A program made the translations under genes and the position numbers. The notes beneath the pieces were generated by a model. The model was not told the DNA's origin. It made no database searches and saw only the letters and a program-made list of their open reading frames with translations. From Pecten maximus (Eukaryota): a DNA stretch of 64,000 nt. Where the stretch lies: assembly GCF_902652985.1 (NCBI RefSeq), contig NC_047030.1, positions 14,508,001 to 14,572,000 of the forward strand, read 5' to 3'. How positions within the stretch are numbered: the stretch's first letter is position 1; each line of letters begins with the position of its first letter. This document shows, piece by piece, positions 2,559 through 64,000 of this stretch.

Positions 2559-2604
2559 AACCATCATTCTATTTCATTTACACTAGATGGCAGAGATTTT
2601 ATAC

Positions 2605-3945: not shown

Positions 3946-4938
3946 TATACCTGAGAGGGTCACAGAGAAATCCAAGAGGAGATAAATCTGTAAATGATGG
4001 GAGAAAGGTGAATCAGGGAATGTCTTACATGGAATGATAATCTTACATGGGCCTGTTCTGTTGATAGGGATATCAGTGTAAGAGTTTGGCTGGTCAGCAT
4101 GAGGCTTGCCAACATGAGAGATGAAATATCACTGTCCACGATATAGGCTCCCTTTGATTATGTTTCTCACATACTGTGCTTAAAAATCTTTGTATCTTTG
4201 TGAATCGCGCTATTCTGAAAAGGTGCATCAAAATTGATGATTTTATTGGTGTGGGTACGCTACATAAAATGAGGGCGTTATGCTATTGTAAGTGGCGTCA
4301 TAGCGTGTGCCAGTTGTCGTTCCTGTAAGACTGATTTATTCTATCCCTAGCAACCAGAGTATGAGAGAAAATGTCTATTCACTCTAAATGGGATGACATT
4401 TGATACAAACTGAAGTCAATCAAGCTGAACATAACTGTGGCAGGTTCTAGTTGTACAAAGGAATAAGCCACATTTTAGGTTTGCACTTAAAAGAAATTTC
4501 ATTTTCATTTTTAACTAGAAAGTTGAAGGTGGAAAGGTCAATTCTGGATGGAAAAAGAACATTGGCCTTACAGGTAAGTTACCTGGTACTTTGATGAAAA
4601 CTTGTATGTGTATACAGGGTTTCATCTACGGTATTTAACTTTTACGGTAAATGTAACATGTAGTAATATCTCACATGTCCCTCTTCTCACAGTCCAGCTG
4701 ATGGTAATTTGTAGAGAAGCTTCAGAATCTGAAATGTGTGTTTGGATGGCAATACAAGGGATGATTGATATGTCGTGAGCCTTGTATTTAAGGAGATCCT
4801 CAAGTATGGCCATGTACCTAAGGACTGGTCTCATTTGGTTAGTTAATATCGACAAGGTAGCACTTTAAAGTAAACAAAACACAAGAGGCTTTTGCAAAAT
4901 GGACAAAATTGGTTAGGGTTAGGGTAAGGGTAAGGGTG

Positions 4939-41423: not shown

Positions 41424-42310
41424 AAATTTTTTCACTCTCTTCACCTTTGACCTTGTGGTCAAGGTTGCAACGATCAAATACAGAGCAAAACACGTCGTTA
41501 TTGGGGCGATAAAGTTATGCCGCAACTTTCATTGAAATATCTTTATCAATTTAAAAGTTATCGCCGGATAAGCAATTATTAGCAAAAATGTTTTTGACTT
41601 TGAAATAAAGGTCAAAATACCCTTACGTAGTTCGTTACACATCGCCTTCAGGTAGTGCAAGTCTAAGTTGCAAGTTATATCAAGATATCTTCAACCGTAT
41701 TGAAGATATGGCTCGGACATACATTTGACCGTGAGGTCAAGGTCGCAAAGATTCAATGGCAGAGCAATTCAATTTTTCAGTGGGTGATAAAGGTTACAAC
41801 AACTTTCATTAAAATGTCGTTAACGATTTAGAAGTTCCATTCAGTACTTTCAAGAAATAGCGATCAAAAACTCCAACTGTTAAAATTCAAAGATGACCGC
41901 CTGTCGTCGGAAGAAGACGAATATGTCTTCCTTCATTCAAAGGGTGCTGAAAATCTGTAAAAAAAAAAAAAAAAAACAGATAGTAAGGTGTTTATACTTT
42001 CGACTCCATCAGACCACGGGGGTTGCAAGTTCTACTTAAAAATAGACATATGTATGAACAATAAACCGATCGGAAGCGTTATATTCCTGCCATATTCGTG
42101 CATTGCCTTGAGTAACATTCCATCACGTGATGGGTTGGAAAATCAGTGTGTCAAGTCTCTGTGCGGGTACAAAGCTTTCAAATCCAATCCTGAAATATTC
42201 TCTTTGAAGTCAAATAGCAAACTTAAAATGGAGTGAAATTTACGAGAAAATATGCGTCATATATTAGACACTACTATAGTGGCAGTGGTTCAAACACCTA
42301 TTTCATGTTA

Positions 42311-43030
42311 AGGCCCTGTCACACTGTTGCGTATCGTACTAGCGTATGCCAGCGTATGAAAAATTATCACTCATTACGCTGGTATACGCTGACATACGCT
42401 AGGGGTACGTTAGGCATAGGTGTATACGTTTCAAACACGCTGGCATACGCTGGGATACGCTGGCATACGCTGAGGCAGAAATAGATTTTTGAGCATGTTC
42501 AAAAATTTTGTGCGTATGCAGACGTATGGTTAATACGCTAAGCATACGCTAGGCATACGCTGAATACGCTAGAGGTACGATATAGGTACGTTACTCATAG
42601 GTCGAGTACGCTGGACGTAAGTTGCCATACGTTGGCGGAAAGTGTATCGTGCAACGAATATAGACATCTTGGCGTATGCCTGACGATTGAGTAACGTATT
42701 TAACGTACAACTAGCGTATTATTGGCGTATGGCCAGCGTATTCTCAGCGTATTGCCAGCGTTTTGATAAAGTGTATATATAGGCTCCCATTTCTAGCTCA
42801 TCTTCAGTTCTTCGTACGCTGGGCATACGCAGTTCATACGCTACTCATACGCTAGCCATACGCAGAGTACGCTGGCCATACGCTGGTCATACGCTACTCA
42901 TAGGTTCAATACGGTAAGTATACGCACAATTCTGTATTTTCAAGGGCTTTTTGTGCGTATGAAAATTATATTATGAATTTTCATTCGCTACTCATATATT
43001 TCTCTCATACGCAACAGTGTGACAGGGCCA
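42311..43030. mobile_element. PIF/Harbinger-like MITE in unit 1
   Basis: TIR ggccctgtcacactgttgcgtat; TTA TSD confirmed by the empty site catgTTAgatg at ~57171 in unit 3. Confidence 0.9.
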
Positions 43031-43414
43031 TTAGATGTGAAAATACACGTCATATATTAGATAAGACTATAGTGGCAGTGGTTCAAACACCTAGATGTGG
43101 ATACTAACGGTCCCATTGCAATCCCCTCTGGATCACTGGTCAAAACCGAAATATCTGTGATATTCATTCTTCAGTAGTACATCTTGTATTGTTAAAACGT
43201 AATGTACGTTTGATTAAAGACTTAGTCAGCAGGATGTGTTAGAGTTAAATAAGTTATATGGTTTAAATATATTTCTATTTACACTCCAGATAATAAATAG
43301 GATGGTGGCGGATCTGGCGCGGAGCTATTTATAGTTATTACTAATGCACTATCTGTATAAGGGTGGATCCCGTGTACTTTAGATGGAAGGAAACTTTTAC
43401 GGACGACAGGTGTG

Positions 43415-43582
43415 TATAAAGACAGTTTCATTGTGCTGGTGTATGCTAGTGATCTGATACTTATAATTGGTGTTTAAAATAAGAGGTGTCTTAGACACTA
43501 TATACTATTTGATAATAGTTTATCTACGGTAGTACAATAACAACAACGTGACTTACATTTACATATCAGCAAACAACACTAT
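43415..43582 (+). promoter_or_regulatory. Candidate TATA box and upstream non-coding exon of dioxygenase copy 1 (equivalents in copies 2 and 3)
   Basis: TATAAA at 43415 and a possible donor AT|GTAAGA at 43582/43583, which could pair with the acceptor at 44879. Motif-level evidence only. Confidence 0.25.
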
Positions 43583-43921
43583 GTAAGATACATTGTGCTT
43601 GATGATTAGCTATATATAACAATGTAACAGAAATGACGCAGGAAGACAATGTTTGACTCGTGCCCTGTCCGAGTCTCCAACGATACGTATACAGTGTGGT
43701 GGTCATTCCTGTTTCTATGTTAGATATATGTACCAATATATAATATTTATACTATACAGTGGGACAGTAAATCTTTTTTGAAGTGTATGCTTTAAGTACG
43801 TTATCCAGGGGTTGGCAGCTCCTGTTTGGGTCTAAAGTGGTCAGGAATGAGTTTTCGTGTCTTCAAAATGACACCCAACTAATTTTACAGTGAATGAAAC
43901 GACATGCTCTGAATGAAAGCT

Positions 43922-44560
43922 TCACCCCTTGATCCTTCCCTCGTTATTAAGTAGCCTTGTGTCCTGTTTGGGTACTAGGTGGTCGAAGAAACCTAGGAAA
44001 AACGTTATTTTCCAGTAGTACTTGGGGTCGTCCACGGCCTGATTCGCGTCATGACGTTGTGTTCCAGCCCTTCTAGGTGCTGCTGGCGCAATATCGAACT
44101 CGGTAGCAATGGTAATAGCTTCGTCATACAGCGTGTCCCAGACCATGCCATCAGCGCGTAAAATCTTGATGACTTTGTTCTCTGTAATTGCCAGGAATAC
44201 GTTTCACTGGGTGTATGAAGCTCGTTTGACCGGGATACACAGTACTGCTCAGGATATAATATGCCATCATCAATCCGATGATTAATTAAAACTACAGAAT
44301 CACACCTAGCCGCTCAACTGCCTTACTATCCTTTATATATTCAAGGCTACATGTATTTATGACAACTGTGAAAGATGCTTTGAATGTTTTGAGGGCGTTT
44401 GTCCTGCTAGAGTCCATAGTGTAGTTCTTTTCTCCAGTTCGTACCGCGCGTTTTCATTTTTGTGATAGTCCCTGTGATACATAGATGTCTTTTTCGCCTT
44501 GATGTTGTATAATACATACCATACAATTTCGACTGTTTTCTAGTAAACACATGTATACAA
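43922..44560 (-). pseudogene. hAT transposase remnant, unit 1
   Basis: PRRAGTQRH...YYWKITFF..FDHL peptide; homologous to the longer remnant in unit 3. Confidence 0.7.
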
Positions 44561-44891
44561 ATCACAGGGAGCAGGGCAATTTGACCGGGTTGGCCTTGTC
44601 ACCCTTGAGACCCTAGATACAAATATATATAACAGTATATTATGTAGTTGTTTTAACAATTACGAAATAGTTAGACCTGTTTGGAAAATTGAATTTGTGT
44701 GCAAAATACTACGTGGAGGTCAGAAAGGAAAGACGGACACTATTATACATTGACTTTGCAATTAATTCACTTTGATAAAGCTCATTTCTCATAAATCATG
44801 ATAATGAGAAAGAGATAGATGTTCGCTTTATACAATCCCATACAATCTCCTTTGAAAACCAGATGCTTTTTCTCTGCAGAACTCAACGATT

Positions 44892-45884
44892 ATGGGGTTT
44901 ACGGAACGAAATCGCACGGAGCTGGAGGAGAAAGGCTACACCGTGGTGGAAAACGTTCTCACCGAAACCGAATGTGGGGAATACATCCGGGCATTCAGGG
45001 ATTGGCTCACCGAATTCCCGGAGGGCGAATGGCCGTCCTCCGCTCATTCTCTCATTCAGGAATATAACATTGGCCATCATGAGGCTGCGTGGAGTACCCG
45101 CCTCAAAGCTAAAGCCGTCTTTTCCAAATTGTGGAAGACGGACAAGCTTCTTACTAGTGTCGACGCCATTGCAATAGGCCGGCCGCCAGAGGACGGAAAA
45201 GAGCTATTCGCGGAGGAAGGTCTCCATTGGTTACACGCTGATCAGGATGCAGAGAAGGTTGGTCTGCATGCTTACCAAGGGACAGTGTACCTGGAGGCGG
45301 TGGCTGAGGACGACTGGACATTCCACGTGATGGAAAGGTCACATCTCTACCTCAATAGTCTCTATGACCGGAACCAGAAAGCAGCACTAGAGAGTTCAAT
45401 TAATAAAAACCATTACATTCGGGATGATGACGAAGAATGGCTTATCTCTAAAGGTTGTGTCACAAAGCGTGTGGCGGTACCACGTGGGGGAATGGTTCTG
45501 TGGGACTCGAGACTTATACACGCAAATGCTCGTCCAAAAGAAGGGAGGGCACATCCAGATAGGTGGCGCTTTTGTGTGATGGTCTGTATGACTCCGGCAG
45601 CGTGGGCGACCGAAGAGGACCTGGAGACCAAGAATGAGGCTTACAGGGACGTAGCCATGACAACACATTGGCCTTCACAAGATGTTCAGATCATGTCTTC
45701 TTTATTTCCTTCAAAATATTCAAATAATATCGGCTGGTTGAAACAACTCCCAGAAAATGCAAAAACAACGGAAGTGAAGCAGATGTGTGGTGTGGTGTCG
45801 TATGATTTCAAAGACGGCGAACCAAACGGCCCCGAATGGATTCCCGTTTGGAATAAGGACAGTAACCAGGAAACAATGCCGTAA
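44892..45884 (+). CDS. PhyH-like (phytanoyl-CoA dioxygenase family) 2OG/Fe(II) oxygenase, copy 1, 330 aa
   Basis: Uninterrupted ORF with N-terminal ELEEKGYTVVENVLT, HxD (WLHADQD), YQG, GGMVLWDSRLIHAN (distal His) and a downstream Arg (RFCVMVC). A splice acceptor (tttttctctgcag) ends at 44879, 12 nt in frame upstream of the ATG, so the N-terminus could be longer. Confidence 0.82.
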   Translation: MGFTERNRTELEEKGYTVVENVLTETECGEYIRAFRDWLTEFPEGEWPSSAHSLIQEYNIGHHEAAWSTRLKAKAVFSKLWKTDKLLTSVDAIAIGRPPEDGKELFAEEGLHWLHADQDAEKVGLHAYQGTVYLEAVAEDDWTFHVMERSHLYLNSLYDRNQKAALESSINKNHYIRDDDEEWLISKGCVTKRVAVPRGGMVLWDSRLIHANARPKEGRAHPDRWRFCVMVCMTPAAWATEEDLETKNEAYRDVAMTTHWPSQDVQIMSSLFPSKYSNNIGWLKQLPENAKTTEVKQMCGVVSYDFKDGEPNGPEWIPVWNKDSNQETMP

Positions 45885-47049
45885 GTCATGATGTTAAAAG
45901 AGACTGGCCATGACGTCAGGGATAAGTCTTTTGGATGGCTTTGTAGCTTGGGCTGTCATCAAGTACGTTAGACAATGAATAAGAAACAGTTTTAGATCTA
46001 CATGAAGGATAGAAAGCCATGATGGAACTGGTCCTAAAATCACAATTTCACACTTACAATACACGAATACAATGTTGATTTACGAATACGAGGGAGGAAA
46101 GGCCCACCTAGTATATCTATTAGGTTGATATTTATACTATATTTATATTTAATCTGCCCAAGTTTGCCGAATTATTTAATTGTGAGCAATACATGAACCC
46201 CGTACAATATAAAGAGATAAGGAGAAGGTGAATTGGTGAACAGAGATGAGAGGGACATACCAGATAGCGCATGGCCCATTCTAACATCCAATGAGGGATG
46301 AAATGGATACACCATCATCTGTCCCTCATACTGTCTGCAGTATTGGTACCAATGGGACGAAAATGCGTCTTGACAATTTGCCATTTGACTTAACACGTTT
46401 GTTCCATCACCATCAGCGGTCGTCAAAGCTCAGTCATTTACAATCTTTGCTTGAAAAATAAATCAGACTTTCAAGAGGTTGCAAAGACAGTTTTCATTTT
46501 GGTGTTAAAGACTAAACTTGTGAAAATCATACTTGTAATGTGCGTTCCTCTATGATACATTTGTAGTGTGTCGTAGAGTATCGTAGAGGAGGGGAAATTA
46601 CAAGTCTGATTGTAATAAGATTGTGTTAAAGACAAACATTTTTCCAAGCGATGAATAAATCCGTATACCTTAATGAAGATATACAAAGCAAATAACTCCT
46701 GTACGGAATGATAAGTTTACAAATGTCGAGTGTTGTAGAGAGAAGCAACTAAAGGCGACTGAGAGGACATTTGTAGGAACAAGCTTCATGGGGACTTCAT
46801 CAATTGTAATTTCCGATAAACAGTGGTATCCATGTTCTCCAGCCATTGATCATTTTTGCGAGTCATCAACAAAAAACATTGACAGTATTTGTTGATAGTG
46901 TTGTGAACTAAATCTGTGATAATTATTTTTATTTTAAGAGGAACATTATTTTAATTAAAATATAATTGTTTCAATCATTTCGTCTTCTACATTTTGTGAT
47001 CATGTGTTTGACATGATTGTCAACACAACGGGCAAAGTATACCAGTCCA

Positions 47050-47372
47050 AGAAACAAGTGGCCCAATGAGCAGTAGGTAAAGGTCATTTATCCTACCAAA
47101 TACTGGCACAATATAACCCTGGGCCCTTTGGTTAGTTAGCTGTTTTGATAGTTTAACACATTTGGAACGAGTAACCTTAAAGGTAGCTTAAGATAATTCT
47201 TTTAAACAAACTTTGGTAGCCTGACCTCCTATAATGCTAAAGGTCCAATATATTGACACTGCCTTTTGGTTATTGAGAATCAACTATTAAAAGTGAAAAT
47301 TGATGCCTGGCGGACAATGATGCTGCACCACGGCATCAGCTCACTTGCCGTTAGGGCAGGTGACCGAAACAT
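47050..47372 (+). mobile_element. Degenerate HINE-like element (also at ~54470-54790 and ~61517-61835)
   Basis: aaacaagtggcccaatg start; tcacttgcc...ggcaggtga 3' hairpin. Confidence 0.45.
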
Positions 47373-49763
47373 AACTAAATACCCTGGACGTATTCAGAAT
47401 CATTCTTGTTTTTTTCCTTAATGAGATGAATTGAAAAGTCCTCCAAATCTATTGGAGGTGTTGTATAAATATTTGCTATCATGTAGATGTCATTTGTAAT
47501 TCTAGCTGCAAAAGATTCAACATTAGTTTTCTAGTCAATGTAAGTCGTTGCCATGGTAATACTTAGTAACACACATTGAAAGCACACACTATATGTATCA
47601 TTAATTATATTTATTATTTTAGATAAGGCAGATAACTCTGTGGGTTCTCGTGTTTGATTAAGTGTTCATACCTGGCCATCTTGGTGATAGACAAGGGTCT
47701 GCATCACCTCGCTTCTGGTAAATTCACAACCTAAAGAACATTTCTTAATTTATTTTTTTGACCCAGGTTCAATGTCATAAGATTTAGCTGTGTTTTTCAA
47801 GAATAGCAAAGCTCAGTGATATTATCTTTGTGGTCATTAGCTTTGCAAGAGTAAATGGTTATAAAGTTGATAAAATGGGCCACCTTGACACATCGCCAGG
47901 AACAGTGTTTCATCTAAGGTTAAACTAGATATTGGTCTATCAATGTATGACTGAAAACCCAAGTACACTGAATAAATTTAAAGTGGCTTGTGAAAACAAG
48001 TTACTCCTTTTAATTTCCTGAAACCGCATTTATGTCGAAGCAGAAGCTATGGAGTCACGATATAAACTGTTATTAACAACATTTTTAAAACATTCGAAAA
48101 ACTTAACTCCAGACCAAAGTTGCTTCCTGTATATTTATATCACTGACCTGTTATTCTTTCTAAATGTTACAAATATAATTAAGAATTAAAAATGGTTCAA
48201 TCAATAGAGTGAATCAGCATTGACAATATTACGTTAATCGCCTTACTAGTTTTACATACATGAAGACATATATAAGAGGAAAAGTTAAAAAGGCGATATT
48301 TTGCAAGGCTACATCTACAAAAAATAGTCTTCGGGATAGCAAAGAAGAATAAATCCTGTTGACTGAATTACACCATATCGTGATAAAAGTGTAGCTGATT
48401 GAAATTGCCTCATATCGTGGTAAAAGTTTAGCTGATTAAAATTACCTCATATCGTGGTAAAAGAGTAGACCAACTTAATTACATCATACCGGGGTAAAAG
48501 TTAAGAAAACTTAATTACGTCATATAGTGATAAAAGTGTAGACCTACTGAAATACATCATATCGTGTTAAAAGGGGTACAACTTGTACTTCAATCAATCG
48601 GCCAAGTTATTTTCCTTACAAGGTCATGCAGTCTTTCTCATCTTATTATTTCAGATTTCAAGGGTGTATATACATGCGACTTTGTTCAACCACTGAAATC
48701 GTAGTTGGTCTGAAAAACTCGACCGAAAGGTAAACGAAAGGACCACACAATACCTCGTTAATCTTGATACTACGTTAAATAGTAAAAGTAGATTTCTTTT
48801 TTATATCCTGATTATTGTTACGATTATTGATTAAACTATACATTGTTTTGGTCAACAAAAAAACATTTATTTTTATTTGTTTCACTCGCTCTACCCTTGG
48901 CCTTGAGGTAAAGGTTGCAACGATCAAATACAGAGCAAAACACGTCGTTATTGGGGCGATAAAGTTATGCCGCAACTTTCATTGAAATATCTTTATCAAT
49001 TTAAAAGTTATCGCCGGATAAGCAATTATTAGCAAAAATGTTTTTGACTTTGAAATAAAGGTCAAAATACCCTTACGTAGTTCGTTACACATCGCCTTCA
49101 GGTAGTGCAAGTCTAAGTTGCAAGTTATATCAAGATATCTTCAACCGTATTGAAGATATGGCTCGGACATACATTTGACCGTGAGGTCAAGGTCGCAAAG
49201 ATTCAATGGCAGAGCAATTCAATTTTTCAGTGGGTGATAAAGGTTACAACAACTTTCATTAAAATGTCGTTAACGATTTAGAAGTTCCATTCAGTACTTT
49301 CAAGAAATAGCGATCAAAAACTTCAACTGTTAAAATTCAAAGATGGCCGCCTGTCGTCGGAAGAAGACGAATATGTCTTCCTTCATTCAAAGGGTGCTGA
49401 AAATCTGTAAAAAAAAAAAAAAAAAAAAACAGATAGTAAGGTGTTTATACTTTCGACTCCATCAGACCACGGGGGTTGCAAGTTCTACTTAAAAATAGAC
49501 ATATGTATGAACAATAAACCGATCGGAAGCGTTATATTCCTGCCATATTCGTGCATTGCCTTGAGTAACATTCCATCACGTGATGGGTTGGAAAATCAGT
49601 GTGTCAAGTCTCTGTGCGGGTACAAAGCTTTCAAATCCAATCCTGAAATATTCTCTTTGAAGTCAAATAGCAAACTTAAAATGGAGTGAAATTTACGAGA
49701 AAAAATGCGTCATATATTAGACACTACTATAGTGGCAGTGGTTCAAACACCTATTTCATGTTA

Positions 49764-50459
49764 AGGCCCTGTCACACTGTTGCGTATCGTACTAGCGTAT
49801 GCCAGCGTATGAAAAATTATCACTCATACGCTGGTATACGCTGACATACGCTAGGGGTACGTTAGGCATAGATGTATACGTTTCAAACACGCTGACATAC
49901 GCTGGCATACGCTGAGGCAGAAATAAATTTTTGAGCATGTTCAAAAATTTTGTGCGTATGCAGACGTATGGTTAATACGCTAAGCATACGCTAGGCATAC
50001 GCTGAATACGCTAGAGGTACGATATAGGTACGTTACTCATAGGTCGAGTACGCTGGACGTAAGTTGCCATACGTTGGCGGAAAGTGTATCGTGCAACGTA
50101 TATAGACATCTTGGCGTATGCCTGACGATTGAGTAACGTATTTAACGTACAACTAGCGTATTATTGGCGTATGGCCAGCGTATTCTCAGCGTATTGCCAG
50201 CGTTTTGATAAAGTGTATATATAGGCTCCCATTTCTAGCTCATCTTCAGTTCTTCGTACGCTGGGCATACGCAGTTCATACGCTACTCATACGCTAGCCA
50301 TACGCAGAGTACGCTACTCATACGCTACTCATAGGTTCAATACGGTAAGTATACGCACAATTCTGTATTTTCAAGGGCTTTGTGCGTATGAAAATTATAT
50401 TATGAATTTTCATTCGCTACTCATATATTTCTCTCATACGCAACAGTGTGACAGGGCCA
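49764..50459. mobile_element. PIF/Harbinger-like MITE in unit 2 (same insertion, duplicated)
   Basis: Same TIR, TSD and flanks as 42311-43030. Confidence 0.9.
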
Positions 50460-51340
50460 TTAGATGTGAAAATACACGTCATATATTAGATAAGACTATA
50501 GTGGCAGTGGTTCAAACACCTAGATGTGGATACTAACGGTCCCATTGCAATCCCCTCTGGATCACTGGTCAAAACCGAAATATCTGTGATATTCATTCTT
50601 CAGTAGTACATCTTGTATTGTTAAAACTTGTACGTTTGATTAAAGACTTAGTCAGCAGGATGTGTTAAATAAGTTATATGGTTTAAATATATTTCTATTT
50701 ACACTCCAGATAATAAATAGGATGGTGGCGGATCTGGCGCGGAGCTATTTATAGTTATTACTAATGCACTATCTGTATAAGGGTGGATCCCGTGTACTTT
50801 AGATGGAAGGAAACTTTTACGGACGACAGGTGTGTATAAAGACAGTTTCATTGTGCTGGTGTATGCTAGTGATCTGATACTTATAATTGGTGTTTAAAAT
50901 AAGAGGTGTCTTAGACACTATATACTATTTGATAATAGTTTATCTACGGTAGTACAATAACAACAACGTGACTTACATTTACATATCAGCAAACAACACT
51001 ATGTAAGATACATTGTGCTTGATGATTAGCTATATATAACAATGTAACAGAAATGACGCAGGAAGACAATGTTTGACTCGTGCCCTGTCCGAGTCTCCAA
51101 CGATACGTATACAGTGTGGTGGTCATTCCTGTTTCTATGTTAGATATATGTACCAATATATAATATTTATACTATACAGTGGGACAGTAAATCTTTTTTG
51201 AAGTGTATGCTTTAAGTACGTTATCCAGGGGTTGGCAGCTCCTGTTTGGGTCTAAAGTGGTCAGGAATGAGTTTTCGTGTCTTCAAAATGACACCAACTA
51301 ATTTTACAGTGAATGAAACGTCATGCTCTGAATGAAAGCT

Positions 51341-51975
51341 TCACCCCTTGATCCTTCCCTCGTTATTAAGTAGCCTTGTGTCCTGTTTGGGTACTAGGTG
51401 GTCGAAGAAACCTAGGAAAAACGTTATTTTCCAGTAGTACGTGGGGTCGTCCACGGCCTGATTCGCGTCATGACGTTGTGTTCCAGCCCTTCTAGGTGCT
51501 GCTGGCGCAATATCGAACTCGGTAGCAATGGTAATAGCTTCGTCATACAGCGTGTCCCAGACCATGCCATCAGCGCGTAAAATCTTGATGACTTTGTTCT
51601 CTGTAATTGCCAGGAATAGGTTTCACTGGGTGTATGAAGCTCGTTTGACCGGGATACACAGTACTGCTCAGGATATAATATGCCATCATCAATCCGATGA
51701 TTAATTAAAACTACAGAATCACACCTAGCCGCTCAATTGCCTTACTATCCTTTATATATTCAAGGCTACATGTATTTATGACAACTGTGAAAGATGCTTT
51801 GAATGTTTTGAGGGCGTTTGTCCTGCTAGAGTCCATAGTGTAGTTCTTTTCTCCAGTTCGTACCGCGCGTTTTCATTTTTGTGATAGTCCCTGTGATACA
51901 TAGATGTCTTTTTCGCCTTGATGTTGTATAATACATACCATACAATTTCGACTGTTTTCTAGTAAACACGTATAC
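51341..51975 (-). pseudogene. hAT transposase remnant, unit 2
   Basis: Near-identical to the unit 1 remnant. Confidence 0.7.
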
Positions 51976-52308
51976 AAATCACAGGGAGCAGGGCAATTTG
52001 ACCGGGTTGACCTTGTCACCCTTGAGACCCTAGATACAAATATATATAACAGTATATTATGTAGTTGTTTTAACAATTACGAAATAGTTAGACCTGTTTG
52101 GAAAATTGAATTTGTGTGCAAAATACTACGTGGAGGTCAGAAAGGAAACACGGACACTATTATACATTGACTTTGCAATTAATTCACTTTGATAAAGCTC
52201 ATTTCTCATAAATCATGATAATGAGAAAGAGATAGATGTTCGCTTTATACAATCCCATACAATCTCCTTTGAAAACCAGATGCTTTTTCTCTGCAGAACT
52301 CAACGAGT

Positions 52309-53301
52309 ATGGGGTTTACGGAACGAAATCGCACGGAGCTGGAGGAGAAAGGCTACACCGTGGTGGAAAACGTTCTCACCGAAACCGAATGTGGGGAATA
52401 CATCCGGGCATTCAGGGATTGGCTCACCGAATTCCCGGAGGGCGAATGGCCGTCCTCCGCTCATTCTCTCATTCAGGAATATAACATTGGCCATCATGAG
52501 GCTGCGTGGAGTACCCGCCTCAAAGCTAAAGCCGTCTTTTCCAAATTGTGGAAGACGGACAAGCTTCTTACTAGTGTCGACGCCATTGCAATAGGCCGGC
52601 CGCCAGAGGACGGAAAAGAGCTATTCGCGGAGGAAGGTCTCCATTGGTTACACGCTGATCAGGATGCAGAGAAGGTTGGTCTGCATGCTTACCAAGGGAC
52701 AGTGTACCTGGAGGCGGTGGCTGAGGACGACTGGACATTCCACGTGATGGAAAGGTCACATCTCTACCTCAATAGTCTCTATGACCGGAACCAGAAAGCA
52801 GCACTAGAGAGTTCAATTAATAAAAACCATTACATTCGGGATGATGACGAAGAATGGCTTATCTCTAAAGGTTGTGTCACAAAGCGTGTGGCGGTACCAC
52901 GTGGGGGAATGGTTCTGTGGGACTCGAGACTTATACACGCAAATGCTCGTCCAAAAGAAGGGAGGGCACATCCAGATAGGTGGCGCTTTTGTGTGATGGT
53001 CTGTATGACTCCGGCAGCGTGGGCGACCGAAGAGGACCTGGAGACCAAGAAGGAGGCTTACAGGGACGTAGCCATGACAACACATTGGCCTTCACAAGAT
53101 GTTCAGATCATGTCTTCTTTATTTCCTTCAAAATATTCAAATAATATCGGCTGGTTGAAACAACTCCCAGAAAATGCAAAAACAACGGAAGTGAAGCAGA
53201 TGTGTGGTGTGGTGTCGTATGATTTCAAAGACGGCGAACCAAACGGCCCCGAATGGATTCCCGTTTGGAATAAGGACAGTAACCAGGAAACAATGCCGTA
53301 A
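52309..53301 (+). CDS. PhyH-like 2OG/Fe(II) oxygenase, copy 2, 330 aa
   Basis: Identical to copy 1 except one N>K change (ETKNE vs ETKKE). Confidence 0.82.
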   Translation: MGFTERNRTELEEKGYTVVENVLTETECGEYIRAFRDWLTEFPEGEWPSSAHSLIQEYNIGHHEAAWSTRLKAKAVFSKLWKTDKLLTSVDAIAIGRPPEDGKELFAEEGLHWLHADQDAEKVGLHAYQGTVYLEAVAEDDWTFHVMERSHLYLNSLYDRNQKAALESSINKNHYIRDDDEEWLISKGCVTKRVAVPRGGMVLWDSRLIHANARPKEGRAHPDRWRFCVMVCMTPAAWATEEDLETKKEAYRDVAMTTHWPSQDVQIMSSLFPSKYSNNIGWLKQLPENAKTTEVKQMCGVVSYDFKDGEPNGPEWIPVWNKDSNQETMP

Positions 53302-55764
53302 CTCATGATGTTAAAAGAGACTGGTCATGACGTCAGGGATAAGTCTTTTGGATGGCTTTGTAGCTTGGGCTGTGATCAAGTACGTTAGACAATGAATAGA
53401 AAACAGTTTTAGATCTACATGAAGGATAGAAAGCCATGATGGAACTGGTCCTAAAATCACAATTTCACACTTACAATACACGAATACAATGTTGATTTAC
53501 GAATACGAGGGAGGAAAGGCCCAACTAGTATATCTATTAGGTTGATATTTATACTATATTTATATTTAATCTGCCCAAGTTTGCCGAATTATTTAATTGT
53601 GAGCAATACATGAACCCCGTACAATATAAAGAGATAAGGAGAAGGTGAATTGGTGAACAGAGATGAGAGGGACATACCAGATGGCGCATGGCCCATTCTA
53701 ACATCCAATGAGGGATGAAATGGATACACTATCATCTGTCCCTCATACTGTCTGCAGTATTGGTACCAATGGGACGAAAATGCGTCTTGACAATTTGCCA
53801 TTTGACTTAACACGTTTCTTCCATCACCATCAGCGGTCGTCAAAGCTCAGTCATTTACAATCTTTGCTTGAAAAATAAATCAGACTTTCGAGAGGTTGCA
53901 AAGAAAGTTTTCATTTTGGTGCTAAAGACTAAACTTGTGAAAATCATACTTGTAATGTGCGTTCCTCTATGATACATTTGTAGTGTGTCGGAGAGTATCG
54001 TAGAGGAGGGGAAATTACAAGTCTGATTTTTATAAAATTGTGTTAAAGACAAACATTTTTCCAGGCGATGAATCAATCCGTATACCTTAATGAAGATATA
54101 CAAAGCAAATAACTCCTGTACGGAATGATAAGTTTACAAATGTCGAGTGTTGTACAGAGAAGCAACTAAAGGCGACTGAGAGGACATTTGTAGGAACAAG
54201 CTTCATGGGGACTTCATCAATTGTAATTTACGATAAACAGTGGTATCCATGTTCTCCAGCCATTGATCATTTTTGCGAGTCATCAACAAAAAACATTGAC
54301 AGTATTTGTTGATAGTGTTGTGAACTAAATCTGTGATAATTATTTTAATTTTAAGAGGAACATTATTTTAATTAAAATATAATTGTTTCAATCATTTCGT
54401 CTTCTACATTTTGTGATCATGTGTTTGACATGATTGTCAACACAACGGGCAAAGTATACCAGTCCAAGAAACAAGTGGCCCAATGAGCAGTAGGTAAAGG
54501 TCATTTATCCTACCAAATACTGGCACAATATAACCCTGGGCCCTTTGGTTAGTTAGCTGTTTTGATAGTTTAACACATTTGGAACGAGTAACCTTAAAGG
54601 TAGCTTAAGATAATTCTGTTAAACAAACTTTGGTAGCCTGACCTCCTATAATGCTACTGGTCCAATATATTGACACTGCCTTTTGGTTATTGAGAATCAA
54701 CTATTAAAAGTGAAAATTGATGCCTGGCGGACAATGATGCTGCACCACGGCATCAGCTCACTTGCCGTTTGGGCAGGTGACCGAAACATAACTAAATACA
54801 CTGGACGTATTCAGAATCACTCTTGTTTTTTTCCTTAATGAGATGAATTGAAAAGTCCTCCAAATCTATTGGAGGTATTTGCTATCATGTAGATGTCATT
54901 TGTAATTCTAGCTGCAAAAGATTCAACATTAGTTTTCTAGTCAATGTAAGTCGTTGCCATGGTAATACTTAGTAACACACATTGAAAGCACACACTATAT
55001 GTATCATTAATCATATTTATTATTTTAGATAAGGCAGATAACTCTGTAGGTTCTCGTGTTTGATTAAGTGTTCATACCTGGCCATCTTGGTGATAGACAA
55101 GGGTCTGCATCACCTCGCTTCTGGTAAATTCACTACCTAAAGAACATTTCTTAATTTATTTTTTTGACCCAGGTTCAATGTCATAAGATTTAGCTGTGTT
55201 TTTCAAGAATAGCAAAGCTCAGTGATATTATCTTTGTGGTCATTAGCTTTGCAAGAGTAAATGGTTATAAAGTTGATAAAATGGGCCACCTTGACACATC
55301 GCCAGGAACAGTGTTTCATCTAAGGTTAAACTAGATATTGGTCTATCAATGTATGACTGAAAACACAAGTACACTGAATAAATTTAAAGTGGCTTGTGAA
55401 AACAAGTTACTCCTTTTAATTTCCTTAAACCACATTTATGTCGAAGCAGAAGCTATGGAGTCACGATATAAACTGTTATTAACAACATTTTTAAAACATT
55501 CGAAAAACTTGACTCCAGACCAAAGTTGCTTCCTGTATAATATCACTGACCTGTTATTCTTTCTAAATGTTACAAATATAATTAAGAATTAAAAATGGTT
55601 CAATTAATAGAGTGAATCAGCATTGACAATATTACGTTAATCGCCTTACTAGTTTTACATACATGAAGACATATATAAGAGGAAAAGTTAAAAAGGCGAT
55701 ATTTTGCAAGGCTATATCTACAAAAAATAGTCTTCGGGATAGCAAAGAAGAATAAATCCTGTTG

Positions 55765-56050
55765 ACTGAATTACACCATATCGTGGTAAAAGTGTAGCTG
55801 ATTGAAATTACATCATATCGTGGTAAAAGTGTAGCTGATTGAAATTGCCTCATATCGTGGTAAAAGTTTAGCTGATTAAAATTACCTCATATCGTGGTAA
55901 AAGTGTAGCTGATTGAAATTACATCATATCTGGGTAAAAGAGTAGACCAACTTAATTACATCATACCAGGGTAAAAGTTAAGAAAACTTAATTACGTCAT
56001 ATAGTGATAAAAGTGTAGACCTACTGAAATACATCGTATCGTGTTAAAAG
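55765..56050. repeat. ~39-bp tandem repeat (catatcgtggtaaaagtgtagctgattgaaatt); fewer copies at 48370-48570, similar array at 62510-62790
   Basis: Direct repeats whose copy number differs between array units. Confidence 0.85.
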
Positions 56051-58099
56051 GGGTACAACTTGTACTTCAATCAATTGGCCAAGTTATTTTCCTTACAAGG
56101 TCATGCAGTCTTTCTCATCTTATTATTTCAGATTTCAAGGGTGTATATACATGCGACTTTGTTCAACCACTGAAATCGTAGTTGTCTGAAAAACTTGACC
56201 GAAAGGTAAACGAAAGGACCACACGATACCTCGTCTCCAAAAAGTAGATTTCTTTTTTATATCCTGGTTATTGTTACGATTATTGATTAAACTATACATT
56301 GTTTTGGTCAACAAAAAAACATTTATTTTTATTTTTTCACTCCCTCTACCTAGGTTGCAACGATCAAATACAGAGCAAAACACGTCGTTATTGGGGCGAT
56401 AAAGTTATGCCGCAACTTTCATTGAAATATCTTTATCAATTTAAAAGTTATCGCCGGATAAGCAATTATTAGCAAAAATGTTTTTGACTTTGAAATAAAG
56501 GTCAAAATACCCTTACGTAGTTCGTTACACATCGCCTTCAGGTAGTGCAAGTCTAAGTTGCAAGTTATATCAAGATATCTTCAACCGTATTGAAGATATG
56601 GCTCGGACATACATTTTACCGTGAGGTCAAGGTCGCAAAGATTCAATGGCAGAGCAATTCAATTTTTCAGTGGGTGATAAAGGTTACAACAACTTTCATT
56701 AAAATGTCGTTAACGATTAAGAAGTTCCATTCAGTACTTTCAAGAAATAGCGATCAAAAACTTCAACTGTTAAAATTCAAAGATGGCCGCCTGTCGTCGG
56801 AAGAAGACGAATATGTCTTCCTTCATTCAAAGGGTGCTGAAAATCTGAAAAAAAAATGAAATATATTTACACACAACAGACAGCATGCTGTATATATTTT
56901 CGACACCATCAGACCACGGGGGTTGCAAGTTCTACTTTAAAATAGACATATTTATGAACACTAAACCCATTCGAAGCGTTATATTCCTGCCATATTCATG
57001 GACAATCAGTGTGTCAAGTCTCTGTGCGGGTACAAAGCTTTCAAATCCAATCCTGAAATATTCTCTTTGAAGTCAAATAGCAAACTTAAAATGGAGTGAA
57101 ATTTACGAGAAAATATGCGTCATACATTAGACACGACTATAGTGGCAGTGTTTCAAACACCTATTTCATGTTAGATGTGAAAATATACGTCATATATTAG
57201 ATACGACTATAGCGGCACTGGTTCAAACACCTAGATATGAATATCAACGGTCCCATTGAAATTCCCTCTGGATCACTGGTCAAAACCGAAATATCTGTGA
57301 TATAGGATGTGTTAGAGTTAAATAAGTTATATGGTTTAAATATATAAATATGTGTTTGATCTATGATGTAATCTATATTTCTATTTACACTCCAGATAAT
57401 ATATAAATAGGATGGTGGCGAATCTGACGCGGAGCTATTTATAGCTATTACTAATGCACTATCTGTATAAGGGTGGATCCCGTGTACTTTAGATGGAAGG
57501 AAACTTTTACGGACGACAGGTGTGTATAAAGCTTGGGATCTGATACTTAATTGGTGTTTGAAATAAGAGAAGGTGTCTTAGACACTATATACTATTTGAT
57601 ATTAGTTTATCTACGGTAGTGCAATAACAATAACGTGACTTACATTTACATATCAGCAAACAACACTATGTAAGATACATTGTGCTTGATGATTAGATAT
57701 ATATAACAATGTAACAGAAATGACGCAGGAAGACACTGTTTGACTCGTGCCCTGTCCGGGTCTCCAACGATACGTATACAGTGTGGTGGTCATTCCTGTT
57801 TCTATGTTAGATATATGTACCAATATATAATATTTATACTATACAGTGGGACAGTAAATCTTTTTTGAAGTGTATGCTTTAAGTACGTTATCCAGGGGTT
57901 GTCAGCTCCTGTTTGGGTCTGAAGTGGTCAGGAATGAGTTTTCGTGTCTTCAAAACGACACCAACTAATTTTACAGTGAATGAAACGTGATGCTCTGAAT
58001 GAAAAGCTGACAAAATACAATATTTCATAATCGACAGGCAACAAAAAGCTATTTATCTATCAGTTATACATACACACTCAGGCCTCTACTGTGTATGAA

Positions 58100-59150
58100 T
58101 CCTAGCTTCAGATGATGTGCAACGGTCTCTTGTCTAATTTCGCATTGGCGAACGTCTCCACAACTGTCCAAACATCCTCTTCCCTGCGTATTTTCTGTTG
58201 TCATCGTAGATCAAAGGTAGGTCTTGACCCTCTTTATACTACTGAATGATCTTTCTGCAGTGACAGTTGTCACCGGTATTGTGAGTAGTACTGGTAACAT
58301 TAGGATACAACAAGGGGTCCGTCTGATTTAGGTACTTGATAATATCTGCTGCTTCTTCTGTCAGATGAAACCATTGACCATCGAGTCTTCCAGTTTTCTA
58401 TCTCAAGCTGGTATTTATCGGACTTGGTCCGATCGACGTCGTAAGCATTTGCATCGTAAATGGCCTGGAATACTTCAGAGATGAGCTCTATAGCAAGTTT
58501 TGCAAGAAGAAAGCTTCACCCCTTGATCCTTCCCTTGCTATTAAGTAGCCTTGTGTCCTGTTTGGGTACTAGGTGGTCGAAGAAACCTAGGAAAAACGTG
58601 ATTTTCCAGTAGTACGTGGGGTCGTCCACGGCCTGATTCGCGTCATGACGTTGTGTTCCAGCCCTTCTAGGTGCTGATGGCGCAATATCAAACTCGGTAG
58701 CAATGGTAATAGCTTCGTCATACAGCGTGTCCCAGACCATGCCATCAGCGCGTAAAATCTTGATGACTTTGTTCTCTGTAATTGCCAGCAATAGGTTGCA
58801 CTGGGTGTATGAAGCTAGTTTGACCGGGATACACAGTACTGCTCAGGATATAATATGCCATCATCAATCCGAAGATTAATTAAAACTACAGAATCACACC
58901 TAGCCGCTCATTTGCCTTACTATCCTTTATATATTCAAGGCTACATGTATTTATGACAACTGTGAAAGATGCTTTGAATGTTTTGAGGGCGTTTGTCCTG
59001 CTAGAGTCCATAGTGTAGTTCTTTTCTCCAGTTCGTACCGCGCGATTTCGTTTTTGTGATAGTCCCTGTGATACATAGATGTCTTTTTCGCCTTGATGTT
59101 GTATAATACATAGCATACAATTTCGACTGTTTTCTAATAAACACATGTAT
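58100..59150 (-). pseudogene. hAT transposase remnant with C-terminal dimerisation motif, unit 3
   Basis: The minus strand reads VLLTIPVTTVTAERSFSSIKRVKTYL*STM (~58200-58293), with stops and frameshifts. Confidence 0.8.
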
Positions 59151-59166
59151 ACAAATCACAGGGAGC

Positions 59167-59393
59167 AGGGGCCGCGGTGGCCGAGTGGTTAAGGTGTACC
59201 GACACTTTATCACTAGCCCTCCACCACTGGGTTGCGAGTTCGAAACCTACGTGGGGCAGTTGCCAGGTACTGGCCGTAGGCCGGTGGTTTTTCTCCGGGT
59301 ACTCCGGCTTTCCTCCACCTCCAAAACCTGGCACGTCCTTAAATGACCCTGGCTGTTAATAGGACGTTAAACAAAAACAAAACAAACCAAACC
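59167..59393 (+). mobile_element. tRNA-derived SINE (V-domain-like), specific to unit 3
   Basis: ggggccgcggtggccgagtggttaagg A-box, gagttcgaaacc B-box, ttctccgggtactccggctttcctccac core, A-rich tail, TSD aatcacagggagc/aatcagagggagc. Absent at the equivalent sites in units 1 and 2. Confidence 0.92.
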
Positions 59394-59639
59394 AATCAGA
59401 GGGAGCCGGGCAATTTGATTATGAAATAGTTAGACCTGTTTGGAAAATTGAATTTGTGTGCAAAATACTACGTGGAGGTCAGAAAGGAAAGACGGACGCT
59501 ATTATTCATTGACTTTGCAATTAATTCACTTTGATAAAGCTCATTTCTCATAAATCATGATAATGAGAAAGAGATTGATGTTCGCTTTATACAATCTCCT
59601 TTGAAAACCAGATGCTTTTCTCTGCAGAACTCAACGAGT

Positions 59640-60632
59640 ATGGGGTTTACGGAACGAAATCGCACGGAGCTGGAGGAGAAAGGCTACACCGTGGTGGAAA
59701 ACGTTCTCACCGAAACCGAATGTGGGGAATACATGCGGGCATTCAGGGATTGGCTCACCGAATTCCCGGAGGGCGAATGGCCGTCCTCCGCTCATTCTCT
59801 CATTCAGAGATATAAGATTGGCCATCATGAGGCTGCGTGGAGTACCCGCCTCAAAGCTAAAGCCGTCTTTTCCAAATTGTGGGAGACGGACAAGCTTCTT
59901 ACTAGTGTCGACGCCATTGCAATAGGCCGGCCGCCAGAGGACGGAAAAGAGCTATTCGCGGAGGAAGGTTTCCATTGGTTACACGCTGATCAGGATGCAG
60001 AGAAGGTTGGTCTGCATGCTTACCAAGGGACAGTGTACCTGGAGGCGGTGGCTGAGGACGACTGGACATTCCACGTGATGGAAAGGTCACATCTCTACCT
60101 CAATAGTCTCTATGACCGAAACCAGAAAGCAGCACTAAAGAGTTCAATTAATAAAAACCATTACATTCGGGATGATGACGAAGAATGGCTTATCTCTAAA
60201 GGTTGTGTCACAAAGCGTGTGGCGGTACCACGTGGGGGAATGGTTCTGTGGGACTCGAGACTTATACACGCAAATGCTCGTCCAAAAGAAGGGAGGGCAC
60301 ATCCAGATAGGTGGCGCTTTTGTGTGATGGTCTGTATGACTCCGGCATCGTGGGCGACCGAAGCGGACCTGGAGACCAAGAAGGAGGCTTACAGGGACGT
60401 AGCCATGACAACACATTGGCCTTCACAAGATGTTCGGATCATGTCTTCTTCATTTCCTTCAAAATATTCAAAGAATATCGGCTGGTTGAAACAACTCCCA
60501 GAAAAAGCAAAAACAACGGAAGTGAAGCAGATGTGTGGTGTGGTGTCGTATGATTTCAAAGACGGCGAACCAAACGGCCCCGAATGGATTCCCGTTTGGA
60601 ATAAGAACAGTAACCAGGAAACAATGCCGTAA
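59640..60632 (+). CDS. PhyH-like 2OG/Fe(II) oxygenase, copy 3, 330 aa
   Basis: ATG at 59640; 13 amino-acid differences from copy 2; all metal-binding motifs intact. Confidence 0.82.
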   Translation: MGFTERNRTELEEKGYTVVENVLTETECGEYMRAFRDWLTEFPEGEWPSSAHSLIQRYKIGHHEAAWSTRLKAKAVFSKLWETDKLLTSVDAIAIGRPPEDGKELFAEEGFHWLHADQDAEKVGLHAYQGTVYLEAVAEDDWTFHVMERSHLYLNSLYDRNQKAALKSSINKNHYIRDDDEEWLISKGCVTKRVAVPRGGMVLWDSRLIHANARPKEGRAHPDRWRFCVMVCMTPASWATEADLETKKEAYRDVAMTTHWPSQDVRIMSSSFPSKYSKNIGWLKQLPEKAKTTEVKQMCGVVSYDFKDGEPNGPEWIPVWNKNSNQETMP

Positions 60633-63600
60633 GTCATGATGTTAAAAGAGACTGGTCATGACGTCAGGGATAAGTCTTTTGGATGGCTTTGTAGCTTGGG
60701 CTGTCATCAAGTACGTTAGACAATGAATAAAAAACAGTTTTAGATCTACATGAAGGTTAGAAAGCCATGATGGAACTGGTCCTAAAATTACAATTTCACA
60801 CTTACAATACACGAATACAATGTTGATTTACGAATACGAGGGAGGAAAGGCCCACCTAGTATATCTATTAGGTTGATATTTATACTATATTCATATTCAA
60901 TCTGCCGAAGTTTGCCAAATGATTTAATTGTGAACAATACATGAACCCCGTACAATATAAAGAGATAAGGAGAAGGTGAATTGGTGAACAGAGATGAGAG
61001 GGACATACCAGATGGCTCATGGCCCATTCTAACATCCAATGAGGGATGAAATGGATACACCATCATCTGTCCCTCGTACTGTCTGCAGTATTGGAACTAT
61101 TGGGACGAAAATGCGTCTTGACAATTTGCCATTTGACTTAACACGTTTGTTCCATCACCGTCAGCGGTCGTCAAAGCTCAGTCATTTACAATCTTTGCTT
61201 GAAAAATAAATCAGACTTTCGAGAGGTTGCAAAGACAGTTTTCATTTTGGTATCAAAGACTAAACTTGTGAAAATTGTAATGTGCGTTCCTCTATGATAC
61301 ATTTGTAGTGTGTCGTAGAGTATCGTAGAGGAGGGGAAATTACAAGTCTGATTTTAATAGGATTGTGTTAAAGACAAACATTTTCCCAAGCGATGAATCA
61401 ATCCGTATACCTTAATGAAGATATACAAAGCAAATAACTCCTGTACGGAATGATAAGTTTACAAATGTCGAGTGTTGTACAGAGAAGCAACTAAAGGCGA
61501 CGTATACCAGTCCAAGAAACAAGTGGCCCAATGAGCAGTAGGTAAAGGTCATTTATCCTACCAAATACTGGCACAATATAACCCTGGGCCCTTTGGTTAG
61601 TTAGCTGTTTTGATAGTTTAACACATTTTGAACGAGTAACCTTAAAGGTAGCTTAAGATAATTCTTTTTAACAAACTTTGGTAGCCTGACTTCCTATAAT
61701 GCTACTGGTCCAATATATTGACACTGCCTTTTGGTTATTGAGAATCAACTATTAAAAGTCAAAATCGATGCCTGGCGGACAATGATGCTGCACCACAGCA
61801 TCAGCTCACTTGCCGTTTGGGCAGGTGACCGAAACATAACTAAACACCCTGGACGTATTCAGAATCATTCTTGTTTTTTCCTTAATGAGATGAATTGAAA
61901 AGTCCTCCAAATCTATTGGAGGTGTTGTATAAATATTTGCTATCATGTAGATGTCATTTGTAATTCTAGCTGCAAACATTCAACATTAGTTTTCTAGTCA
62001 ATGTAAGTCGTTGCCATGGTAATACTTAGTAACACACATTGAAAGCACACACTATATGTAACATTAATTATATTCGTTATTTTAGATAAGGCAGATAACT
62101 CTGTAGGTTCTCATGTTTGGTTAAGGGTTCATACCTGGCCATCTTGGTGATAGACACGTGTCTGCATCACCTCGCTCCTGGTAAATTCTCTACCTAAAGA
62201 ACATTTCTTAATTTAATTTTTTGACCCAGGTTCAATGTCATAAGATTTAGCTGTGTTAAGATTTTAAATCAATTGATTTTCAAGAATAGCAAAGCTCAGT
62301 GATATTATCTTTGTGGTCATTAGCTTTGCAAGAGTAAATGGTTATAAAGTTGATAAAATGGGCCGCCTTGACACATCGCCAGGAACAGTGTTTCATCTAA
62401 GGTTAAACTAGATATTGATCTATCAATGTTTGACTGAAAACCCAAGTACACTGAATAAATTTTAGTGGCTTGTGAAAACAAGTTAAAGAATAAATCCTGT
62501 TGACTGAATTCGCCATATCGTGGTAAAAGTGTAGCTGATTGAAATTACCTCATATCGTGGTAAAAGTGTAGCTGATTGAAATTGCCTCATATCGTGGTAA
62601 AAGTTTAGCTGATTAAAATTACCTCATATCGTGGTAAAAGTGTAGCTGATTGAAATTACATCATATCTGTGTAAAAGAGTAGACCAACTTAATTACATCA
62701 TACCGGGGTAAAAGTTAAGAAAACTTAATTACGTCATATCGTGGTAAAAGTGTAGACCTACTGAAATACATCGTATCGTGTTAAAAGGGGTACAACTTGT
62801 ACTTCAATCAATCGGCCAAGTTATTTTCCTTACAAGGTCATGCAGTCTTTCTCATCTTATTATTTCAGATTTCAAGGGTGTATATACATGCGACATCGTT
62901 CAACCACTGAAATCGTAGTTGGTCTGAAAAACTTGACCGAAAGGTAAACGAAAGGACCACATGATACCTTTTCAAACTTGATACTGCGTTAAATAGCAGT
63001 CTCCAAAAAGCAGAATACTTTTTTAGATCCTGGATATTGTAACGATTATTGTTTAAACTAAACATTGTTTTGGTCAACAAAAAATCATTTCTCCCTTGTT
63101 TTTTTCACTCGTTTTACCTTTAGGTCAAGGTTGCAATGATCCAATTATCCAATGATCCAATGCAGAGCACAATACGTCGTTTGTGGGGCGGTAGAGGTAT
63201 TCAATAACTAAAAAGTTATCGCCGGATAAGCAATTATAAGTAAAAATGCTTTTTGACATTGAAATAAAGTTCACTTACGTAGTGCGTTACACATCAGCTC
63301 GAGGTTGTTCAAGTCAACTGCAAGTTACGTCAAGATATCTTAATTCAACGGTATTGAAGTTATGGCTCGGACATAATTTGCACTTCTTTTACCTTTAACC
63401 TTGAGGTCAGGGTCGCCTTAGTTGATAAAGTAACAACAATTTTCGATAAGAAGAAGACTTCAACTGGCCGCCTGTCGAAAGAAGAAACATGCTCTCCTTC
63501 ATTCGAAGGGGAAGCGTAATTCATCGCTCAAAAGGTGTTAACGTACAACAGACAACAAAGTTTTTTATAGTTCCAGGTTCTACTGAAAAAAATAGTAGAT

Positions 63601-64000
63601 ATAGATGTATAAACAACAAACCGATTGGGGCGTCATATTCCTGTCATTTTTATGCGTTGCATGGAGTATGCATTCCATTAGGCGATAGGTAGGTAAATCA
63701 ATGTGTCAAGTCTCTGTGTGAGGTACAAAGCTTTCTATCTTTCTAATCATCAAATAATCTCTTTGAAGTCATATTTACGAGAAAATATACGTTATATATT
63801 AGATAATACTATGGTGGGAGTGGTTCAAACACTGATTTCTTGTTAGATGTGAAAATTGCCCTTTGGTGTTTTTTTTTTTTTTTTTTTAAATAGTTATCTG
63901 TCCAAAGAAATCTCTTTGGATCACTGGTCCAAACCAAAACGTCCGTGTGATATTAATTTTTTTCAGTAGTATTGTAAAGTGTACGTTTGATTAAAGACTA

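Follow-up and report, generated by a model that had tools for sequence, protein, structure and literature searches.

The window analysed here, a 64,000-nucleotide stretch of the Pecten maximus contig NC_047030.1, contains three tandem units of ~7.3–7.4 kb on the plus strand (41427..63570), each of which carries one gene for a PhyH-like dioxygenase (Table 1). A search of the species' own genome found a fourth copy, which the earlier sequence-only reading had not seen, 2.6 kb beyond the window edge. Copies 1–3 share a deletion, likewise missed in that reading, that removes the C-terminal hydrophobic tail kept in copy 4, and they differ from one another almost only by amino-acid changes. We would give an even chance to the reading that these genes are recent tandem duplicates, likely to encode soluble enzymes, and that their differences are variants at tolerant sites under relaxed constraint combined with gene conversion.

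Table 1. Positions of the PhyH-like genes and their features in the window, and amino-acid changes between copies 2 and 3
Feature	Position	Strand	Remarks
Unit 1	about 41427-48876	+	
Unit 2	about 48877-56351	+	
Unit 3	about 56352-63570	+	
Unit 4, start	63570..64000	+	its gene, copy 4, lies beyond the window
Copy 4 gene	from G000:C16:14574597 (L019:2597-3691)		364 aa, predicted transmembrane tail
Copy 1 CDS	44892-45884	+	330 aa
Copy 2 CDS	52309-53301	+	330 aa; E57, E167, A237, Q266, N278
Copy 3 CDS	59640-60632	+	330 aa, PhyH-like Fe(II)/2-oxoglutarate dioxygenase (predicted), no C-terminal hydrophobic tail
Copy 3 exon 1, 3' part	57462..57519	+	in-frame ATG would add 13 residues; donor GT at 57520
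Copy 3 intron	57520..59627	+	2108 bases
Copy 3 motif codons	H115 at 59982, D117 at 59988, H210 at 60267, R226 at 60315	+	
Deletion site, copy 3	60627..60635	+	by alignment to copy 4
Former tail-coding DNA, copy 3, now 3' UTR	60633..60726	+	14 of 91 bases differ from copy 4
Copy 2 to copy 3 changes, N-terminal part			32 I>M, 57 E>R (2 adjacent bases), 59 N>K, 82 K>E, 111 L>F
Copy 2 to copy 3 changes, middle			167 E>K, 237 A>S, 242 E>A
Copy 2 to copy 3 changes, C-terminal part			266 Q>R, 271 L>S, 278 N>K, 289 N>K, 323 D>N

The short 5' exon of copy 3, placed by its 3' part, ends at 57519 and is spliced to 59628. The 343-aa database models fit the 13 extra N-terminal residues from the exon 1 ATG. 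Among the P. maximus models of LOC117314842 / LOC117314843, P0121 corresponds to copy 3 and P0124 to copy 2, each with these 13 residues added, and P0001 and P0123 correspond to copy 4; the orthologue of the scallop genes is LOC110455311. The two P. maximus loci carry only the label 'uncharacterised', and copy 3 is listed as an isoform of the copy-4 locus. One annotated isoform (P0001 / P0121 models) splices an exon 1 of the copy-1–3 type onto the copy-4 exon, which is either an annotation artefact or a case of read-through splicing that would choose between an anchored and a soluble form. The intron of copy 3 also harbours a 226-base dispersed repeat (59170-59395) that copies 1 and 2 do not have. 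This repeat is 90–92% like window positions 20286-20505 and 9702-9905, has a short flanking duplication and occurs at very high depth in RNA-type contigs; we take it to be, likely, a SINE.

Two more clusters of the family lie at about 7.16–7.29 Mb and 13.15–13.17 Mb of G000:C16 (L005–L018, 37–54% identical). These loci have an intron near residue 102 that is absent from the window copies. A retrocopy origin of copies 1–3 was rejected since the 5' intron is retained, despite the missing internal intron. A stop near the start in L013 and a frameshift in L010 and L017 were also observed, and the family clusters on this contig look like products of birth-and-death evolution. Elsewhere in the window, six minisatellite arrays were located (2585-3972, 6616-8263, 10261-11728, 23711-25897, 26349-26991 and 31563-32749), three of which yield spurious repetitive ORFs, and a segment of about 720 bases between units (42311-43030), with near-complementary ends and missing from the other units, is possibly a small inserted element.

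Copies 2 and 3 scored 23.0 and 23.2 bits against the PF05721 profile, a narrow margin over the curated cut-off of 22. The final structure model, built on 123 sequences, reached a pLDDT of 95.3, falling to 67 at residues 321–330; an earlier model from 16 sequences was weak (pLDDT 72.4), and the Foldseek search used that weak model. The best structural matches (VIA-align, Z 15–20) were all Fe/2OG oxygenase-type chains, and in the model copy 3 takes the double-stranded beta-helix fold of the PhyH type. By sequence, phmmer returned a single unrelated match among solved structures (E = 0.28) and the profile search none. H115 and H210 were invariant in all 123 rows, R219 and R226 were invariant as well, and D117 was present in 16 of 16 alignment rows; R226 is presumably the 2-oxoglutarate-binding basic residue, a putative assignment by the family topology. 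The homologue search gave 252 proteins at E ≤ 1e-10 among 988 candidates, and the best 120 of the 252 were molluscan where named, the closest named being from P. maximus, Argopecten, Ylistrum and Mizuhopecten. Hydroxylation by Fe(II)/2-oxoglutarate chemistry is established for this fold, and by analogy the role of these enzymes is most likely the hydroxylation of a small molecule or lipid. Among the Atlas look-alike clusters of copy 4, one was 78% bacterial and one 90% viral (mostly Nucleocytoviricota), a lead only on the wider range of the family.

Relative to copy 4, copies 1–3 have in common a 14-nt deletion with TAA straight after codon 330, and the remnant of the tail-coding DNA ends at 45978 in copy 1 and at 53395 in copy 2. 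The earlier statement that there are no stops or indels therefore holds among copies 1–3 but not against copy 4, where the comparison shows this deletion with its immediate stop and one extra codon near 272. The tail of copy 4 has a Kyte-Doolittle 19-residue maximum of 2.1 followed by a short basic end, whereas copies 3 and 2 are without a hydrophobic segment (maximum –0.27 and –0.25) and the end of copy 1 equals that of copy 2. A tree built without copy 1 nests copies 2 and 3 in the scallop clade, with copy 4 as their sister. Because the hydrophobic tail is kept in copy 4 and in all five other scallop-clade sequences, the loss in copies 1–3 is recent. Proteins whose tail anchor finishes in a short basic stretch are generally targeted to the membranes of organelles. 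Copies 1–3 are thus likely to make a soluble enzyme after losing a predicted membrane anchor.

Across the family, the tail was found in 60 of 123 rows and was absent from 63, with 14 gains or losses on the tree, at least 9 of them forced by well-supported branches; these counts come from a tree that was built quickly, and gene models that are incomplete may be present among the tail-less rows. Six other family loci in G000 showed no such tail when inspected by eye. Since about half of the rows are without it, a tail-less enzyme appears to be a normal form in this family.

Codon comparison reproduced exactly the differences first listed between copies 2 and 3, namely 14 non-synonymous bases in 13 codons (Table 1) and one synonymous base, which lies in codon 160. 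Copy 1 is copy 2 with K248N and no other difference, L111 sits four residues ahead of H115, and the metal ligands are untouched, all as previously described; H115, D117 and H210 are present in all four copies. The net charges of copies 1, 2 and 3 are –17, –16 and –8. The reported shift of +8 was right in size but not in direction. When the changes were polarised with copy 4 and orthologues as outgroup, R57E, K167E, S237A, R266Q and K278N were derived on the copy-1/2 side (charge –6, to which copy 1 adds K248N), while I32M, N59K, K82E, L111F, E242A, L271S, N289K, D323N and the silent change were derived in copy 3. Five of the six copy-1/2-side changes remove a Lys or Arg. A gain of positive charge by copy 3 was rejected as the description, the polarised change being +2; most of the +8 comes from basic residues lost in copies 1/2.

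Charge was altered by 9 of the 13 changes (P = 0.03), and the charge difference went beyond a simple null (P about 0.006), which is overstated because that null allows single-base changes only and omits the two-base type seen at codon 57. The changes are scattered from codon 32 through 323. The 14 changed positions all fall below 70% conservation, a level reached by 44% of all positions (120 homologues; entropy test, P = 0.0008).

Eight of the 24 listed sequencing runs were compared, all as assembled contigs, in which depth is only a rough guide and does not equal copy number. The deletion form was present in all three DNA-type runs, which come from three studies and one of which may be the assembly's own source, at depths of 66, 19.7 and 133; the copy-4 form in the same runs had depths of 34.5, 16.9 and 50.5. 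Contigs of X4, X10, X11 and X13 span the deletion site gap-free, and one of X5 does so with only a 3-base gap elsewhere. The X10 contig joins 57516 to 59625 (exon 1 to exon 2, GT..AG), and X13 record 1 starts with exon 1 of the copy-1–3 type, as a 55-base loose end; X10, X11 and X13 were taken as RNA by guess, and X1 and X3 are RNA on record. In X1 and X3, intron bins outside repeats had depths of 0–2.3 against 69–602 in coding bins. The truncated form is thus present among spliced RNA-type contigs. Because they are spliced, appear in RNA contigs, keep the HxD...H motif and are changed only at variable sites, the truncated copies look functional. Two extra alleles, N325D and E327G (60612 and 60619; X1 and X11), were seen in a truncated-type contig; both are non-synonymous, fall in the poorly modelled C-terminal end and are the only extra alleles among the rows listed.

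These data bear on two other explanations. If the tandem copies were alleles placed in tandem, or their differences base errors, one of copies 1 and 2 might be an allelic duplicate, as they are near-identical over intron and CDS. F111, the site singled out by the sequence-only reading, and K289 were seen in 0 of the 8 runs, although contigs drop minor variants and this is no proof of error, and N248 of copy 1 appeared in no row listed across the 8 runs. However, six copy 3 letters (M32, K59, E82, A242, S271 and N323) were each seen in one run or more, with K59 and some others read off from differences in depth, and the deletion form in all three DNA-type runs reached roughly 1.2, 1.9 and 2.6 times the copy-4-form depth, so that we consider such an assembly artefact very improbable. 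The copies could also be young pseudogenes whose function ended with the deletion in copies 1–3, leaving all sites neutral. Compared with every close orthologue they do show a frameshift and a premature stop, omega among them is not below 1 (see below), and other family members on the contig have a stop or frameshift (L013, L010). However, changes spared the conserved positions, the genes are spliced in RNA-type contigs with a near-uncovered intron, and the stop falls after the modelled domain in a family of which about half has no tail, which makes this explanation improbable. A pseudogene or pure artefact is accordingly an unlikely account of the array.

Several observations point to exchange of sequence among the copies. 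The 39 fixed differences between copy 4 and the truncated copies are patchy, with 2 in codons 50–161, 11 in 162–180 and 0 in 181–209. Silent differences between copy 4 and copies 1–3 leave a gap of 117 codons (P = 0.004), and they amount to 19 over some 243 sites, compared with 80 of 590 sites across neighbouring non-coding stretches. Scanning for the cluster at codons 162–180 gave P = 0.0004 for 60 bases and 0.058 for 100 bases; here the truncated copies have derived N173, H174 and I176 in place of Y, Y/F and L in other scallop-clade sequences, and the cluster is a possible divergence peak between copy 4 and the truncated copies. In addition, the divergence of copy 1 from copy 2 is 0.3% in the intron (5 of 1470 sites) vs 2.2% in the 3' UTR (19 of 867 sites). 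In the available text of PMC3924837, shared polymorphism and new haplotypes are given as marks of conversion, and divergence peaks as a mark of selection against it.

The run contigs combine copy-2 and copy-3 letters, and the differences can therefore no longer be taken, as they had been at first, for fixed divergence of paralogues. M32 occurs together with E57 in X1 record 4, E167 together with S237, A242 and R266 in X3 record 30, and E82 together with E167 in X2 record 12. In X2 and X4, an arm with E57 and an arm with S237/A242 reach depths that cannot be accommodated without overlap (by a rough minimum of 50% and 62%). As assembled contigs these mosaics may be chimeric, and X13 record 1 mixes copy-4 letters with E57. 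Majority voting among the four window haplotypes, however, cannot yield M32 with E57 or E167 with A242. The differences between copies 2 and 3 thus likely segregate rather than mark paralogues, judging from these contig sequences. At codons 270–283 (60446-60486), X5 record 31, a contig of the truncated type, has the letters of copy 4; either this stretch was possibly converted from copy 4 or the contig is chimeric.

Under a codon model, omega among copies 1–3 was 4.8 and omega on the copy-4 branch was 0.33 (two-ratio LRT, p = 0.001). A Fisher test of 15:1 among copies 1–3 against 20:19 on the copy-4 branch gave p = 0.004. Over all codons, however, omega = 1 was not rejected (p = 0.057), and a separate exact interval ran from 0.73 to 204. 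The probability of at most one synonymous change among 15 was 0.058–0.124 for kappa from 4 to 1, 0.073 with the local mutation spectrum and 0.092 with codon 57 counted as one event. Uniform constraint on silent sites was rejected as the sole cause of the deficit, since those silent differences that separate copy 4 from the other copies form clusters (P = 0.004). For comparison, pN/pS was 0.45 in an older tandem pair of the family (L006/L007).

Of 3338 sites compared in the DNA flanking copies 2 and 3, 98 (2.9%) differ. At this rate 21.4 amino-acid changes would be expected and 14 were seen, and 7.4 silent changes would be expected and 1 was seen (P = 0.005). In tolerant codons, the 14 amino-acid changes compare with 11.8 expected at the flank rate (P = 0.30), whereas measured against silent sites they are too numerous (p = 0.007 with the 70% cut and p = 0.027 with the 90% cut); these thresholds were picked after the data had been seen, and the pair had been chosen for its extremeness from a large scan. 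The two yardsticks disagree: the flanks favour relaxation and the silent sites favour selection. Positive selection, which had been put forward first, is borderline and not shown: the contrast of omega 4.8 with 0.33 and the charge bias speak for it, while the test of omega > 1 and a rate of change no faster than that of the flanks do not.

Diversifying selection would nevertheless be an alternative to relaxed constraint. Under this explanation the anchor-less copies were tuned at surface or substrate-entrance residues, mainly by charge, while conversion wiped out silent differences and selection kept or spread the amino-acid variants. The omega contrast with the copy-4 branch, the tolerant-codon excess over silent sites, the charge difference with its overstated P, and conversion evident within the coding sequence all fit such a course. 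Derived E57 and A242 were found in all three DNA-type runs and E167 in two of them (X5 has no cover there), and the 11-difference cluster that separates copy 4 from the truncated copies, including N173, H174 and I176, is of the sort that PMC3924837, in its available text, reads as selection against conversion. However, the overall test for omega > 1 gave only p = 0.057–0.12, the amino-acid rate does not exceed the flank rate, and the changes are spread over the whole of codons 32–323, with post hoc tolerant thresholds and a pair picked as extreme. Moreover, a selected difference held for long would carry linked silent divergence, and none surrounds the copy-2/copy-3 changes; F111 and K289 were in none of the runs. 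We regard diversifying selection as a real rival, though the less likely one. A fuller scenario, in which an anchored enzyme became soluble by the 14-base deletion and diversifying selection on charge then outran conversion and is still polymorphic, is in our view rather unlikely. Its sites would be the Lys/Arg losses at 57, 82, 167, 248, 266 and 278 and the remodelled 173–176 segment, and it would amount to a retuning of substrate use, possibly for hydroxylating dietary algal compounds.

The reading that we prefer, of tandem duplication with relaxed constraint and conversion, starts from what was observed directly: four tandem units with the tail only in copy 4, and a truncated form that three DNA-type runs contain and that also appears in spliced RNA-type contigs. 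No change falls at conserved positions, and selection would still guard the catalytic core. Redundancy among the copies may free the tolerant sites, with omega near 1 there, and the mosaic contigs and patchy divergence suggest that copies exchange sequence through unequal crossing-over and gene conversion. That so few silent changes are seen would be partly chance, picked out after the fact. This reading needs some luck to accommodate the tolerant-codon excess over silent sites, because neutral conversion would lower the silent and amino-acid classes alike. The charge bias and the two further alleles N325D and E327G, both non-synonymous, also speak against it.

If it is true, this is an ordinary young tandem array with a recent tail loss, in which parent and daughters still lie next to each other, and an uncharacterised mollusc dioxygenase family repeatedly gains or loses a C-terminal hydrophobic tail. 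The tail-less copies would be a natural soluble construct for finding the substrate of the family. If selection is true instead, the array would make a workable example of how relocalisation and adaptive retuning proceed under gene conversion, in a species that is fished. A literature search that had subscription papers outside its scope found no publication on the locus or its identifiers and no report of tail loss in this family. As a weak functional lead, Table 6 of PMC6410316, in the available part of that study of the queen scallop digestive gland exposed to domoic-acid-producing diatoms, places PF05721 within the 20 most enriched families, with 9 genes that were mostly up; the 9 genes may include an orthologue of the genes described here.

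Compared with known systems, the scallop copies share the intact HxD...H motif of PhyH-like PF05721 enzymes, among which the mollusc group often bears a C-terminal hydrophobic tail. Human PHYH and PHYHD1 match the fold with Z of 15.1 and 14.6 at just 12–13% identity; for PHYH, no PDB sequence match was found at E ≤ 1, and at 13% identity the likeness is one of shared fold only. The best structural match was Candida Gig2 (6akz; Z 20.4, rmsd 3.5, 281 aligned), followed by YbiU (DUF1479; 4rgk, Z 19.5, rmsd 3.5, 265 aligned), to which the scallop copies are 14–16% identical while being about 100 residues shorter. Although these are the best fold matches, neither copy 2 nor copy 3 had PF07350 (DUF1479) among its listed profile matches at E ≤ 0.1; an Atlas neighbour cluster has this profile in 29% of its members. 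At the level of the array, the scallop copies resemble the opsin-type duplicates under conversion described in the available text of PMC3924837 in their patchy divergence and mixed haplotypes, but they differ from an opsin-type divergence peak in that, among copies 1–3, no silent divergence flanks the amino-acid changes.
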